Assembly (NCBI GenBank): GCA_001818495.1
Contig: MHKS01000002.1
Location: forward strand, 16,120 to 80,119
DNA length: 64,000 bases
Origin: Candidatus Komeilibacteria bacterium RIFOXYD1_FULL_37_29
GTDB lineage: Bacteria; Patescibacteriota; Patescibacteriia; UBA1558; GWA2-36-10
Direction: 5' to 3'
In this document: piece by piece, positions 12,744 through 28,016 of the stretch
How positions within the stretch are numbered: the stretch's first letter is position 1
How the letters are laid out: each line of letters starts with the position of its first letter
Notes under the pieces: generated by a model
What the model was told of the DNA's origin: nothing
Databases searched by the model: none
What the model saw: only the letters and a program-made list of their open reading frames with translations
Translations under genes and position numbers: made by a program

Positions 12744-13112
12744 ACCAGCGCTGTAAAAAGCTTAATAAATCAACAATACATTTAATGATAGTTAGTCTAA
12801 AAATAAATAAAACTTAAAAGGATTTTGGGTAGAATTTATTTTTACGTGAAATCCCGCCTGACGGGATTTTTGAGACCTTAAAAAAATAATCGCTAGCAAG
12901 TAGTTTTTTAAATAGGTAGGCTTACGCGACTTTTTTAAAAAACTACTTATTACCGATTAAAAGGTAAAGAACTTTGAAAAGTGAATACAATACAAATCAT
13001 AAATATAATAAACAATGTTTATGAGCATCTTTAGATAAAAAATATCTCGTATAGATATAAACGAAAATTATATCCAAAATTAAATCCATTAAAAGTTTTC
13101 AGAATTTTTGAT

Positions 13113-16215
<3,103 letters not shown>

Positions 16216-16470
16216 ATTAAAAATTTTGGAAGTTTTTTCACTCTACTTTACAAGAAGTAATGAGTGGATCCCGCTTCGGCGGGAAGTGGAGCTTTATACG
16301 TGATATTTTATAAGCTCATGAACATTGATAAACACACCGGAATGATCAAAATAATTTTGATCTTCCTGATGCTAATTGTATTCTTAGGGGTAGTATTTTT
16401 TCTAACCCCGTTAAAACAAATAGTATAAAAAACGATATTTTGGTAAGAAATTAGGTTAAGAAGAAGGTAT

Positions 16471-16590
16471 TACTCTCGTGGCACTAGCGAGTTGGCAACA
16501 CCTGATCCCATTTCGAACTCAGTAGTTAAGCGACTCAGCGCCGATGGTAATAGCTTATCATGGCTGTGAGAGTAGGTCGTCGCGAGAGTT
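16471..16590 (+). rRNA. rrf: 5S ribosomal RNA
   Basis: CCTGATCCCATTTCGAACTCAGTAGTTAAG...CAGCGCCGATGGTA...TGTGAGAGTAGG conserved 5S core; helix 1 ctctcg/cgagag. Confidence 0.85.
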
Positions 16591-19567: not shown

Positions 19568-19696
19568 TTATCTTTTCTTTCTGCGAGCAACTTTTCTCTT
19601 CTTAGAAGTTTTTTTAGCTACTCTCTTTTTAGCAACTTTTCTCTTCTTAGAAGTTTTTTTAGCTACTCTCTTTTTAGCAACTTTTTTCTTTTTCAC
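19568..19696 (-). CDS. Lys/Arg-rich 42-aa micro-protein (VKKKKVAKKRVAKKTSKKRKVAKKRVAKKTSKKRKVARRKKR), putative nucleic-acid-binding
   Basis: strong SD AGGAGGT 7 nt upstream of GTG; perfect 45-bp tandem duplication encodes a repeated 15-aa unit; the + strand ORF 19455-19721 is its antisense artefact. Confidence 0.45.
   Translation of the reverse strand: MKKKKVAKKRVAKKTSKKRKVAKKRVAKKTSKKRKVARRKKR
19591..19680. repeat. Perfect 45-bp direct tandem repeat x2 inside the K-rich micro-ORF
   Basis: cttttctcttcttagaagtttttttagctactctctttttagcaa repeated back-to-back (19591-19635, 19636-19680). Confidence 0.9.
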
Positions 19697-19762
19697 GTGT
19701 CCCACCTCCTTTCTTTTGTAAAGATTTTGTGTCAATTAATTGACTTTTATTTTTATTATTTT

Positions 19763-20023
19763 TTAGCTAATTTTAGCCCCAAAAATGCTGGTAGCGATCC
19801 ATTTGGCAAAAGCCTCACCTAGATTGGTCGCTTGCAAAAAACCACCAAAGATAATCACAATACCTATTAGCTTGTACATCAATCTAGTACCTCCCTCTGA
19901 ACCGAGATGTCTATCGGCCCAATCAATCCGGCCTAAATTATTTAACAGCCAATCGGCTTTCCAAACAATAACAAAACCAATTGCTGCTATAAGTAGTCCA
20001 CCAAAAAAATTTCCAAAGCTCAT
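19763..20023 (-). CDS. Small membrane protein, hypothetical
   Basis: 86 aa, two predicted TM helices; own extended -10 (TGgTATAAT at 20054-20062, minus strand); no SD (near-leaderless). Confidence 0.4.
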   Translation of the reverse strand: MSFGNFFGGLLIAAIGFVIVWKADWLLNNLGRIDWADRHLGSEGGTRLMYKLIGIVIIFGGFLQATNLGEAFAKWIATSIFGAKIS

Positions 20024-20120: not shown

Positions 20121-20160
20121 AAATAAAATAGCCGGTCGATGAAAAATCATCGACCGGCTT
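20121..20160 (-). terminator. Strong rho-independent terminator (agccggtcgatg/catcgaccggct) ending the zinc-ribbon transcript
   Basis: 12-bp stem, U-run on minus strand. Confidence 0.65.
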
Positions 20161-20175
20161 AAGAAGGCGAAACGA

Positions 20176-20295
20176 TCAAGCGGCTTTGGCCTTGATGGTT
20201 TTTATTTTTTTGCCACAACTTGGGCAAGCGCCGTGTAGTTTGACAAACCAACGGTAAATTTTCTGTAAGCAGTGAGGACAAGATAGGGTTTTCAT
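20176..20295 (-). CDS. 38-aa zinc-ribbon micro-protein (MKTLSCPHCLQKIYRWFVKLHGACPSCGKKIKTIKAKAA)
   Basis: SD aaaggag 7 nt before ATG; two CPxC pairs 17 residues apart; the only ORF between the SAM-I riboswitch and the next terminator. Confidence 0.55.
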   Translation of the reverse strand: MKTLSCPHCLQKIYRWFVKLHGACPSCGKKIKTIKAKAA

Positions 20296-20375
20296 GGTTT
20301 GCTCCTTTTACCAATTTATGGTTGATCTAGTTTTATTTCGCCACTATTGCAATGAGCCTAAAAAAACTAACCTTT

Positions 20376-20420
20376 GGAAAGATTAGCTTTTTTAGAATCA
20401 AAAAAAGTCCTTGGACAAGA
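20376..20420 (-). terminator. Tandem weak hairpins each followed by U7 (riboswitch expression platform / attenuator)
   Basis: minus strand ...cuuguccaaggacuuuuuuu... and ...cuaaucuuuccaaagguuaguuuuuuu... Confidence 0.4.
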
Positions 20421-20433
20421 ACTATTTTAGTGT

Positions 20434-20558
20434 GTTATCTTCCCCGCATTCGTCCGGCGTATGTCGGATGGGCTGGATTTAGCACCTGTACTGTTTATTA
20501 GTCGGTTGCTGACTATCATCGGGCCAGTCCCTTAGCAGATAGTACTCTTGATAAGCTT
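20434..20558 (-). promoter_or_regulatory. SAM-I (S-box) riboswitch aptamer
   Basis: minus-strand sequence CUUAUCAAGAG...UAAGGGACUGGCCCGAUGA...GCAACC...GGUGCUAAAUCCAGC...GAAGAUAA matches the SAM-I consensus elements (P1 UUAUC/GAUAA, K-turn GGGA/GAUGA, CUGGCCC, GCAACC, GGUGC..AA..CC); ~48% GC in a 35% background. Confidence 0.8.
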
Positions 20559-20601
20559 GTCCCGTACTTGATACGGGATCTAAATTGTCAATGTGATATT
20601 T

Positions 20602-20629
20602 ATATTAACACAAGTATTATTTTTGTCAA
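20602..20629 (-). promoter_or_regulatory. Putative promoter for the riboswitch transcript (TTGACA-16-TgtTAATAT)
   Basis: -35 consensus plus extended -10-like element on minus strand about 45 nt upstream of aptamer P1. Confidence 0.4.
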
Positions 20630-26459: not shown

Positions 26460-26984
26460 TTATTTAACGACAGCTAGTTTTTTGTGTTTGATAGCCAAAG
26501 CGATGGCTTCCCAAGCACCAAAAATTATTAGGGAATAGCTGATATCACTTAGTAAAGTGGCCTTAAAGAAGGGAATAGCTAGAGTATAAGACCAAGCTAG
26601 TCCAGCCAGATCATGACTATACCAAGTGCCAAAATACCAGACCGCAAAATTGGTCAGCAGGAAAAATAGCAAAGATGAAGCCAGGGCAGAAGTAGTGATA
26701 TTTAAGAAGTTTTTGTTTTTCTTGAGCCACATGCCAAGTAGGCCGATTAGCGCCAGTGATCCATAAACAGATAGCATGATTTCAAATTTGTAAAAGCCTA
26801 TAAATAGATCGGAAATAAACAAAGCTATTAAAGGTAAGATAATATATTTTTTGGATTGTCCATAGACACCAGTAAAAAGCGCTACGCTAGCTAGCGGAGA
26901 GAAATTTGGCAGATGTGGTATTAGCCGAGCGACGACCGCCACAGTGCAGATAATTAATATTAATAATATATTTTTTTTGTTCAT
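26460..26984 (-). CDS. Polytopic membrane protein, possible ECF-type S component (CbrT-like?)
   Basis: 174 aa, 5-6 TM; context next to DUF4430 and BtuR suggests a cobalamin-uptake role; sequence family not firmly recognised. Confidence 0.3.
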   Translation of the reverse strand: MNKKNILLILIICTVAVVARLIPHLPNFSPLASVALFTGVYGQSKKYIILPLIALFISDLFIGFYKFEIMLSVYGSLALIGLLGMWLKKNKNFLNITTSALASSLLFFLLTNFAVWYFGTWYSHDLAGLAWSYTLAIPFFKATLLSDISYSLIIFGAWEAIALAIKHKKLAVVK

Positions 26985-27010
26985 ATTTTGAATTCACCCT
27001 ATATAATTAT

Positions 27011-27427
27011 TTAAAATTCTGATTCCATAAACTTCCATTCAATTATTGATCCGTCAGGAGGGAAATATTTGTCAGCTGAGACTTGGACCTGCTTGCTGTC
27101 TGCAAAAAATTGCCAGTATTTTTGATCTTGACCATTCGCTTTGTCTTTGATTTGGACAATCAAGACACCCATGTCCCCATAATCTTTAAAATCATAAGCC
27201 CATTTTTCCTGGCCAGCTATATTTTGTGTTATTTCAGATAGACTAAGTGGTTCTGGGTTTTTGATATTGAAAGAAACTTGTTCGGTTTCGGAAAAATAAA
27301 AAGCTACAATAATATTTTGGGGCTGATTGGCGTTTGGGGTGGTGTCAGCCACTGGTTTTTTTTGCCAAAAATAAAAAATTGCCCCAATGACGATGATTAA
27401 AATTACAAGAATTGATAATTTTTTCAT
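27011..27427 (-). CDS. DUF4430 domain secreted protein (B12-binding-associated family)
   Basis: 138 aa with signal peptide; C-terminal ...KYFPPDGSIIEWKF resembles DUF4430 Y-x-[LV]-x-DGD-x-[IV]-x-W motif. Confidence 0.45.
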   Translation of the reverse strand: MKKLSILVILIIVIGAIFYFWQKKPVADTTPNANQPQNIIVAFYFSETEQVSFNIKNPEPLSLSEITQNIAGQEKWAYDFKDYGDMGVLIVQIKDKANGQDQKYWQFFADSKQVQVSADKYFPPDGSIIEWKFMESEF

Positions 27428-27473
27428 AGTTATATTTTTTATTCCTCAACTACTCTCAGGAGGACTCTAGAGA

Positions 27474-28016
27474 TCAAAATTCAATGCCTTTTCTAGCTCC
27501 TAGTCCAGTAGTCATATAGTGTTTGAGGGGCTTCATCTCAGTAATCAGATCCGCTCGTTCCATTACTTTATCAGGGCAATAGCGACCAGTCAAGACTAAT
27601 TCTAGATTGGCTGGTTTTTGTTCCAATAAATTTAAAATATCGTCTAGTTCTAAGAGGTCGGTAGCTACGGTGGTATTTATTTCATCCAAAATTAAGAGAT
27701 CAAAAGCTTCTTTCATCCACTCTAATGCTTGTCTGATAGCCAGCTGAGCCTGCTCTAGATCTTTTTGGTTATTTTGAAAGCGAAAACCTCGGCCGTCACT
27801 CATCCGTGCTTCGCCAAAAGCCAAATATTTTAAGCCGTCGGTGGTCAACTTGTCCAAAATCTTTCTCTCGCCATAATAATCGCCACCTTTATCAAAATAA
27901 ATAATACCAACTTTTAGACCATTGCCAATGGCTCGAATAGCCAGACCCAGAGAAGCAGTGGTTTTGCCCTTGCCGTCCCCAGTATAAATATGTATTTTAC
28001 CGGTAGTTTTTTGCAT
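27474..28016 (-). CDS. Cob(I)yrinic acid a,c-diamide / cob(I)alamin adenosyltransferase (BtuR/CobA/CobO family)
   Basis: 180 aa; IHIYTGDGKGKTTASLGLAIRAIGNGLKVGIIYFDKGG canonical. Confidence 0.85.
   Translation of the reverse strand: MQKTTGKIHIYTGDGKGKTTASLGLAIRAIGNGLKVGIIYFDKGGDYYGERKILDKLTTDGLKYLAFGEARMSDGRGFRFQNNQKDLEQAQLAIRQALEWMKEAFDLLILDEINTTVATDLLELDDILNLLEQKPANLELVLTGRYCPDKVMERADLITEMKPLKHYMTTGLGARKGIEF

Follow-up and report, generated by a model that had tools for sequence, protein, structure and literature searches.

A SAM-I riboswitch leader with two putative serial terminators precedes an unannotated microprotein gene in Patescibacteria

The window analysed here, a stretch of 64,000 nucleotides (nt) of contig MHKS01000002.1 (positions 16,120 to 80,119) from Candidatus Komeilibacteria bacterium RIFOXYD1_FULL_37_29, carries on its minus strand, between a tRNA cluster and the gene for an 86-amino-acid (aa) membrane protein, a riboswitch of the SAM-I (S-box) class, named after its ligand S-adenosylmethionine (SAM). 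The riboswitch is followed by two short hairpins, T1 and T2, and by a 39-aa open reading frame (ORF) encoding four cysteines (Cys4), which is without annotation and for whose product no gene is on record (Table 1). Ten assemblies carry this sequence with 100% identity across riboswitch and ORF, and in these the gene callers either left the region empty or placed there a wrong-frame ORF of 51 aa. We propose that positions 20629-20130 probably form a self-contained, SAM-repressed transcription unit in which a single strand of the aptamer, termed X, is handed over between two terminators. By comparison of homologous loci, the unit is conserved in a group of Patescibacteria represented by metagenome-assembled genomes (MAGs) of the Parcubacteria type.

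Upstream of the unit, the tRNA cluster ends in a terminator (20669-20642). The promoter of the unit comes next; it displays 10 of 12 consensus matches together with an upstream TG and is kept in relatives, spacer AAAAATAATA included. An earlier interpretation made from the letters of the window without database searches, hereafter the sequence-only reading, had placed at this locus a TTGACA-16-TAATAT promoter, a SAM-I aptamer at about 20434-20558 with its sequence hallmarks and its helices P1-P4, and tandem short hairpins each followed by U7, in a host resembling the Candidate Phyla Radiation (CPR). All of these were borne out, the genome being a Patescibacteria/Parcubacteria MAG and the homologues of the 86-aa protein being named as members of the Patescibacteria/Parcubacteria group. 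Its figure of about 48% GC for the aptamer was accurate (0.49) and its background of 35% was not, the GC content of the window being 38.2%. The Cys4 ORF, given as 38 aa, has 39 residues and is, as stated, unannotated and preceded by a good Shine-Dalgarno (SD) sequence, kept in relatives as AAGGAG or AAGAGG. The terminator described after it, a 12-bp stem at 20132-20160, is indeed strong and comprises 13 pairs at 20159-20130; its position is kept among relatives, with compensatory stem changes in loci L011, L015 and L016. The 86-aa gene downstream has, as had been noted, its own extended -10 promoter (TTCTCA-17-TATAAT with TG), and a sequence scan of the 52-nt spacer between T2 and the SD detected no promoter-like site. 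Given this spacer and the strong terminator behind the ORF, the SAM-I leader can control just one gene, the Cys4 ORF that had been singled out before. In a DNA alignment of the syntenic loci, promoter, aptamer, T1, T2, SD, start codon and post-ORF terminator are all kept. A match to the RefA1 small RNA (20305-20495, 29 bits vs a threshold of 94) was dismissed as noise.

Table 1. Features of the SAM-I unit, related leader loci and other features of the window (locus numbers refer to homologous loci; positions are those of the window or of the locus named).
Feature	Position	Strand	Description
Sigma-70-type promoter	20602..20629	minus	TTGACA 20629-20624, 16-nt spacer, TG-extended TAATAT 20607-20602
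Conserved box ACATTGACAAT	20584..20594	minus	at or near transcript 5' end; (near-)invariant in alignment A1, found in distant lineages
Lineage-specific 5' hairpin	20560..20578	minus	UCCCGUA-UCAA-GUACGGGA, by folding; 22-nt insertion between box and P1
SAM-I (S-box) aptamer	20432..20557	minus	P1-P4 and pseudoknot; RF00162 covariance model
Strand X GGGGAAGAUAA	20435..20445	minus	3' strand common to P4 and P1; candidate antiterminator for both T1 and T2
T1 (putative terminator)	20400..20423	minus	AGUUCUU-GUCC-AAGGACU + U7; hairpin 20423-20406, U run to 20400; -4.3 kcal/mol
T2 (putative terminator)	20358..20395	minus	A6 + hairpin GCUAAUCUU-UCCA-AAGGUUAGU + U7; core 20387-20366, U run to 20360; -6.8 kcal/mol
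Shine-Dalgarno AAGGAG	20302..20307	minus	6 nt 5' of ATG
39-aa Cys4 ORF MKTLSCPHCLQKIYRWFVKLHGACPSCGKKIKTIKAKAA	20176..20295	minus	predicted zinc-ribbon microprotein
Post-ORF intrinsic terminator	20130..20159	minus	13 pairs, 8 G-C, then T-rich tail; closes monocistronic unit
Leader loci L036-L060	e.g. L055 2457-2571, L060 549-1299, L038 915-1402		same SAM-I leader before orphan ORFs
clpP-rny slot loci	L038, L042, L043, L047, L048, L052, L055, L058, L059, L060		L023 zinc ribbon also just downstream of clpP
86-aa gene	19763-20023	minus	two-helix membrane protein
55-aa ORF	19568-19735	minus	extremely Lys/Arg-rich
23S rRNA	13112-16218	plus	3107 nt
5S rRNA	16474-16588		after 23S rRNA
Three adjacent genes	26460-28016	minus	annotated DUF6580, DUF4430 and CobA/CobO/BtuR in identical contigs

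The aptamer aligns with the RF00162 model over its full length (model positions 1-108 of 108) at 51.3 bits (gathering score 44.4; E = 7.2e-9 over the entire window), and all upper-case blocks of the consensus are retained (UUAUCAAGAG, AGGGACUGGCCCGAUGA, GCAACC, GGUGCUAAAUCCAGC and GAAGAUAA). Judged by the covariance model, the element is a full-length RF00162 member and a canonical SAM-I aptamer, predicted to bind SAM. Its P2 helix is six nt longer than the Rfam consensus and its P4 loop measures 24 nt. The aptamers of relatives score 44.5-59.4 bits, and those with large insertions drop below the threshold. Such insertions, of about 60-90 nt, occur in some aptamers (L023 971-1175, L027 1592-1786, L040, L041 and L048) and mostly correspond to a branched P3 extension starting AACCAAC..CUUCGGUUGGCAAGC; RF00162 is then sub-threshold or finds no match.

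Covariation was analysed on 22 non-redundant aptamers of this subclass. RNAalifold recovers P1-P4. When the pseudoknot that joins the P2 loop to J3/4 is included, paired cells make up 99.7%, vs 20-48% with slid partners. Compensatory changes occur at nine pairs, with four in P2 and two in P3. Three of the four pairs of the pseudoknot covary; it is CUGG:CCAG in the window and CUAG:CUAG or CUGA:UCAG elsewhere in the subclass. By these comparative data the SAM-I fold of the subclass is under selection. The K-turn sequence of P2 in the window, CCCGAUGA, is as in canonical members; within the subclass, the GA positions of the K-turn covary in a Watson-Crick manner with the 5' strand (columns 22-23 with 46-47). 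This re-pairing leaves in P2 a 6x3 internal loop, UGCYAA / RAU (alignment A5, columns 21-29 and 43-48), located in the window at about 20536-20528 and 20514-20509. The Watson-Crick pairing of the K-turn GA is absent from the sequence-only reading, as are the complementarity of the hairpins to the P1/P4 3' strand and the other cargos described below. Such a re-registered P2/K-turn region, with its six additional nt and the P3 insertions of about 90 nt in some members, could be taken to signal a changed ligand, for instance S-adenosylhomocysteine (SAH) or another adenosyl compound. We consider this very unlikely: the consensus nucleotides of J1/2, J3/4, P1 and P3 and the pseudoknot are all retained, and the changes of the subclass fall outside the binding pocket reported from SAM-I structures.

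Downstream of the aptamer, every leader of the subclass displays the same arrangement: T1 is a hairpin of 6-8 bp followed by U6-7, and T2, a longer hairpin, often has A6 and U6-7 tracts at its flanks. T1 is almost invariant in the window lineage and found in all leaders, and the T2 stem shows compensatory changes among relatives. Strand X, invariant in 22 of 22 aligned aptamers with the exception of one deletion, has two complementary sites, the 5' half and loop of T1 (CUU-N-CC) and, better matched, the 5' half and loop of T2 (AUCUU(U)CCCC), where the C-run of the loop is retained even when a hairpin has been inserted into that loop (L043 and L052). In order to quantify this complementarity, duplex energies were computed between X and the 5' half plus loop of each hairpin, with 70 other terminator-like hairpins from the same loci as controls. 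In the window the X:T1 duplex amounts to -7.1 and the X:T2 duplex to -10.4 kcal/mol. The median is -8.6 kcal/mol for X:T1 (n = 26 leaders) and -13.0 kcal/mol for X:T2 (n = 28 leaders), vs a median of -4.2 and a best value of -8.6 kcal/mol for the controls, none of which (0/70) reaches the X:T2 median. The Mann-Whitney comparisons with the controls gave p = 1e-11 for X:T1 and p = 1.6e-14 for X:T2, values that overstate the independence of the leaders since these are related to one another.

Folding of the segment from X to T2 without the U tract pairs X with the 5' strand of T2, enclosing T1, in the minimum-energy structure of 16 of the 28 leaders. Co-transcriptional snapshots of the window leader place X on T1 while only T1 has emerged (-5.2 and -6.9 kcal/mol); once the 5' half and loop of T2 have emerged, X is found on T2 with T1 refolded inside (-13.6 kcal/mol). 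The competition between terminators and antiterminator for the P1 3' strand, for which the sequence-only reading had suggested a folding check, is thus seen as complementarity of X to both hairpins, the full-length states being nearly degenerate. From their form, their conservation and their complementarity to an antiterminator, we infer that T1 and T2 act as terminators, and a single antiterminator strand probably serves T1 and then T2. An alternative anti-T2 structure, pairing of the U7 of T1 with the A6 tract, was rejected since L015, L016 and L029 do not conserve the A tract.

Taken together, these features most likely describe a transcriptional OFF switch by which the microprotein would be made only when SAM is scarce. 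The near-consensus promoter would drive synthesis of the aptamer. Upon SAM binding, P1 and P4 would close and sequester X, T1 and T2 would form, and transcription would end before the ORF, yielding short RNAs of about 195 or 235 nt. When SAM is scarce, free X would pair first with the 5' half and loop of T1; as T2 begins to emerge with its 5' half and C-rich loop, X would shift to this better-matched partner, T1 would refold behind it, and RNA polymerase, having cleared both terminators, would read the 39-aa ORF and stop at the post-ORF terminator. With one aptamer governing two terminators, repression would be multiplied and the OFF state very tight.

Several observations speak against such a hand-over. 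In 8 of the 28 leaders T2 persists in the minimum-energy fold and X stays unpaired, and in the full-length window leader pairing of X with T1 alongside a formed T2 is favoured by 0.9 kcal/mol over pairing of X with T2 (-14.5 vs -13.6 kcal/mol), so that read-through of T2 would have to be kinetic. Both hairpins of the window are weak and AU-rich, with at most two G-C pairs each, for which reason a simple terminator scanner does not list them; it also misses T1 and T2 in L023 and flags T2 of L060 only in an extended form. Finally, the pairing of X with T1 and T2 is backed by conserved complementarity and not by covariation, because X is invariant. These data leave some room for a scheme with only one regulated hairpin, in which either T1 is a programmed pause allowing SAM to bind and T2 the real terminator, or T2 is a constitutive attenuator that lowers expression in the ON state. 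The weakness of T1 in all lineages (-4 to -6 kcal/mol), the much better pairing of X with T2 than with T1 and the eight leaders with X unpaired would all fit such a scheme, which we hold to be possible but unlikely: the 5' half and loop of T1 are still complementary to X well beyond the controls, a full U6-7 tract follows T1 in every leader, and the conserved C-run in the T2 loop speaks against a constitutive T2.

The 5' end of the leader carries further elements. A 5' box, ACAUUGACAAU (consensus CAUUNACAAY), occupies the same position in all leaders, and in the window lineage a similar sequence, CAUUGCAAU, is found past T2 (about 20354-20346). Use of the box of Table 1 as the -35 element of a second promoter was considered and rejected because its spacing to P1 is variable and its spacing to -10-like sequences is not conserved. 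The 22-nt hairpin insertion that follows the box in the window is missing from L011, L015 and L016; L033 carries a different hairpin in the same place.

Substitutions inside the 39-aa ORF follow the codon frame in the DNA alignment (TGT/TGC, ATT/ATC, TAC/TAT, CTA/CTG/CTC), the cysteine codons varying synonymously, and over a 22-codon core of 12 sequences the proportion of nonsynonymous differences (pN, 0.12-0.47) was lower than that of synonymous differences (pS, 0.28 to saturation, >1) in 66 of 66 pairs. The family shares the motif C-x2-C-x3-[IV][YF]xW[FY][VI]-x5-C-x2-C, the best phmmer matches having CPxC at both knuckles, and cysteines C6, C9, C24 and C27 are invariant save in one phage-like member with CPKH. 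By this substitution pattern the ORF is a real, conserved gene evolving as a folded protein. That it might be an untranslated chance ORF, or merely a leader or sensory peptide as the sequence-only reading had contemplated, appears extremely unlikely: its length is below the usual gene-calling limits and it is unannotated, but it starts 64 nt past the final U of T2, beyond the switching region, and is preceded by a strong SD, while the four invariant cysteines, the conserved hydrophobic core, the synonymous variation, the independent family members retrieved by phmmer and a confidently predicted minifold all point to a functional product.

This minifold, obtained with AlphaFold2 from the family alignment (pLDDT 80.7), comprises two knuckles, a beta-hairpin and a short helix; residues 3-5 and 12-14 form the strands and residues 15-21 the helix. 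We thus regard the product as a Cys4 zinc-ribbon microprotein of a previously unannotated family that is predicted to bind zinc. The C-terminal tails range from basic, in the window, to strongly acidic (proteins P0041 and P0035), and the conserved unit is thus the 28-residue ribbon. The family appears to be rare, since a profile search of 5.8 billion proteins gave only seven solid clusters; phmmer on 1.84 billion representatives gave 15 matches at E < 1e-3. No above-threshold match to Pfam or NCBIfam was found for the peptide or for family members, the best sub-threshold profile being NF004633 (DUF983-like, 21.6 bits vs a cut-off of 187), with HVO_2753 at 17.9 vs 80. The LysW, YacG and FmdB profiles all remained below cut-off against the peptide family, and the Lar family was absent from the profile matches of the peptide and 12 members. 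Foldseek comparison with the PDB and BFVD returned nothing at E < 0.09, with generic RING/U-box-like or zinc-ribbon minifolds above that value, and a sequence search of the PDB just generic CPxCGK knuckles. PADLOC-DB gave no match for the window peptide or eight other cargo and family proteins, except a marginal one for P0041 (E = 0.008). The resemblance to Trm112 suggested by the sequence-only reading did not hold, as neither Trm112 (PF03966) nor any other family was matched above threshold by the window peptide or the 12 scanned members. Trm112 is a methyltransferase activator; it is likewise small, in some organisms a zinc-knuckle protein, and linked to SAM-dependent enzymes, but it differs in length and predicted topology, and there is no methyltransferase neighbour here.

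The sequence-only reading had further asked whether the peptide is conserved and always linked to the riboswitch, and among bacteria this is what was found: in 13 of 13 bacterial lineages examined, a tally made without P0032 and P0035, the zinc-ribbon ORF is immediately preceded on the same strand by the riboswitch. The pair occurs in at least three neighbourhoods, namely beside tRNAs and the 86-aa gene, beside the genes for RecR, L21 and a Mur ligase, and beside clpP. In the syntenic loci L011/L012, L015 and L016, whose 86-aa proteins are 70-73% identical to that of the window, an RF00162 match of 48.4-55.1 bits lies between the tRNA cluster and the 86-aa gene, and a small ORF with the same Cys4 pattern is found at the same place. 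Riboswitches also precede the more distant members P0041 (L018, 56.8 bits, next to RecR, L21 and Mur ligase in the MAG 'Candidatus Parcubacteria bacterium nzgw376'), P0025 (L030, 55.9 bits) and P0028 (L029, 40.3 bits). The ribbon of P0029 (L027/L028) is tandemly duplicated behind an aptamer with a P3 insertion of about 90 nt, mis-scored by cmscan at 29.3 bits, and that of P0031 (L023-26), downstream of clpP, follows an aptamer with two insertions which was missed by cmscan and identified by direct reading. A scan of 185,579 species-representative genomes with the back-translated motif gave four true loci, all with a riboswitch, of which L031 and L033 were new; a fifth hit, L032 (Polaromonas, GC 68%), was rejected as a chance match inside a coding region. 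A metagenome scan added two further zinc-ribbon variants, L050 and L057. Contig CAZINP010000001.1 (L031, 240.8 kb, 40% GC) is labelled 'uncultured Gammaproteobacteria' and carries a Parcubacteria-type riboswitch and a tandem zinc-ribbon cassette; its label or binning is probably wrong.

These neighbourhoods also bear on whether the riboswitch might instead control the 86-aa membrane protein gene by read-through, the micro-ORF being incidental. The 86-aa gene does follow the cassette in the window lineage and in L011, L015, L016, L029 and L033, but the 13-bp terminator and the TG-extended promoter lie between the two genes, the cassette occurs without an 86-aa neighbour in L018, L023, L030 and L031, and L013 and L014, the closest loci by 86-aa identity (77%), retain the 86-aa gene without riboswitch or microprotein, which makes this arrangement highly improbable. 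In these two loci, a gene for a TauE/SafE-family membrane transporter (L013 4768-5301, L014 4746-5478) stands between the tRNAs and the 86-aa gene, in the place of the riboswitch.

The same leader also precedes other genes. Scanning 241 million metagenome records with the subclass-specific P2 sequence yielded 25 loci, two of which were chance matches; the others share promoter, 5' box, aptamer, T1 and T2. Most of these leaders are followed by ORFs of 35-167 aa that do not belong to the zinc-ribbon family; an SD precedes each of these ORFs, and each has a strong terminator of its own. At least three further recurrent cargo families were recognised, one of about 70-80 aa (L038, L059, L058 and L040), one of 167 aa (L055 and L060) and one Cys-rich (L048 and the second ORF of L042). 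Searches of Pfam and PADLOC gave no match for these other cargo families, NCBIfam none above threshold, and the viral scan no viral relative for cargo family C. In ten loci the cassette is flanked by clpP on one side and by rny (RNase Y), a ymdB-like gene and hup on the other, forming a variable slot in a conserved locus, on the far side of which the rny promoter region (CTTGCCAAAAAT..TATGCTAGAnT) is conserved. A comparison of L040 (1273-2655) with L045/L027 revealed 92-95% nt identity across the upstream genes and the entire leader to the last U of T2, after which homology ends, with a 69-aa protein on one side and the tandem zinc ribbon on the other. This swap of cargo right after T2 between close relatives presents the regulatory leader as a reusable module.

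A strong promoter and two terminators would also yield many short RNAs, and the leader, 5' box included, is far more conserved than the sequence downstream of it. The element might accordingly be mainly an RNA regulator whose terminated transcript acts in trans or as a sponge, the ORF being a passenger. The SAM riboswitch transcripts SreA and SreB of Listeria monocytogenes reportedly act in trans, and the likeness lies in a SAM-I leader whose abundant terminated short RNA could have a role of its own. Here, in contrast, each leader that was followed far enough leads into an SD, an ORF and a strong terminator, purifying selection acts on the zinc-ribbon ORF, and no candidate target was recognised by complementarity, the 5' box being short; we therefore judge a primary role as regulatory RNA to be very improbable.

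Comparison with known systems places the unit closest to the S-box leaders of Firmicutes, such as those of Bacillus subtilis yitJ, metI, metE and metK. It shares with them the four-way junction, the pseudoknot, the conserved junction nucleotides and a P1 3' strand that would belong either to the aptamer or to an antiterminator competing with an intrinsic terminator, with SAM as the OFF signal. It differs in controlling an orphan 39-aa ribbon or other orphan ORFs rather than a methionine, cysteine or SAM gene or a transporter, in its two putative serial terminators both complementary to the same P4/P1 3' strand, in its longer P2 with a Watson-Crick-paired K-turn GA, and in its patescibacterial host. 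Tandem arrangements have reportedly been described, for example the SAM-I and adenosylcobalamin (AdoCbl) riboswitches of Bacillus clausii metE or tandem thiamine pyrophosphate (TPP) and glycine aptamers. These likewise place two termination checkpoints in one 5' leader for a sharper or tighter response, but they are built from two aptamers with their own terminators, whereas here one aptamer appears to govern two.

The protein resembles other Cys4 microproteins (the Haloferax HVO_2753 type, LysW, YacG, the Lar family and the N-terminal ribbon of DUF983) in its size class of about 35-60 aa, its two CxxC knuckles, its predicted beta-hairpin/zinc minifold and its weak sub-threshold profile matches to several of them, but it reaches no family cut-off, and the core [IV][YF]xW[FY][VI] that separates the knuckles is peculiar to this family. 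None of the named Cys4 zinc-ribbon microprotein families is known to be riboswitch-controlled. Our literature search found no report of SAM riboswitches in CPR, Patescibacteria or Parcubacteria, of tandem terminators, or of a link to a zinc ribbon, in agreement with the earlier remark that such a ribbon lies outside the described SAM regulons. What sets the unit apart from the described S-box leaders is the regulon of orphan microproteins, the proposed use of one strand for two terminators, the re-registered P2 and the host phylum, none of which was found reported in the literature searched.

The 86-aa protein has no Pfam match and 24 homologues, only in Patescibacteria/Parcubacteria MAGs; its identical sequence is present on at least 24 contigs, including those of GCA_001818445.1, GCA_001818865.1 and groundwater metagenomes. 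The 55-aa Lys/Arg-rich ORF contains the internal repeat VAKKRVAKKTSKKRK twice, has been annotated as a gene in several relatives and overlaps an 88-aa ORF of the plus strand; it is possibly a histone-like or nucleic-acid-binding protein. The 23S rRNA exceeds its 2925-nt model by several insertions of 50 nt or more in domain I, a type of insertion often seen in CPR bacteria, and no 16S rRNA was detected in the window. The third of the adjacent genes at 26460-28016 is cob(I)alamin adenosyltransferase-like, and the cluster may serve cobalamin uptake or salvage in a reduced genome.

Two sets of results bear on the function of the microprotein. Two phage-like contigs carry relatives of the ribbon without a riboswitch: one from IMG/VR with a terminase-like gene (L062 10678-10818, minus strand), where the relative has its own promoter, and one with HNH and DnaB genes nearby (L021/L022 4001-4240), where the divergent member P0039 is encoded. 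The role of the ribbon would hence not be intrinsically tied to SAM sensing. A viral scan with the riboswitch pattern returned nothing but a chance hairpin (L061, identical in sequence to L037). Moreover, no homologue of established function was found for the microprotein in Pfam, NCBIfam, PADLOC, the PDB or by Foldseek. Our best guess is that the microprotein binds and modulates another macromolecule within a response to SAM starvation. A starvation or conflict effector would fit the overall pattern better than a core metabolic enzyme, considering the expected expression at low SAM, the replacement of the gene between close relatives, the phage-borne relatives and the sharing of the module with strain-variable orphans.

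The hypervariable cargo at a conserved locus, the tight-looking repression and the ungated relatives on phage-like contigs further suggest a more speculative idea, which we rate as doubtful, that the leader is a portable 'SAM-depletion alarm' behind which strains swap conflict-related effector microproteins. Such effectors may relieve self-restriction when a lack of SAM makes DNA methylation fail, or may be abortive-infection or anti-phage proteins triggered when SAM-degrading enzymes of phages deplete the pool. The use of one aptamer strand as antiterminator for two serial terminators would constitute a simple design for tight control, useful for synthetic biology, and the riboswitch can serve as a beacon for real micro-ORFs that gene callers and domain databases miss, here a new zinc-ribbon family and at least three orphan families. 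More broadly, the unit would place a SAM-I riboswitch outside sulfur and methionine metabolism, signalling SAM shortage to microproteins in ultrasmall symbiotic bacteria, and SAM-I-gated microproteins in bacteria with almost no biosynthesis point to an unexplored starvation or conflict response.

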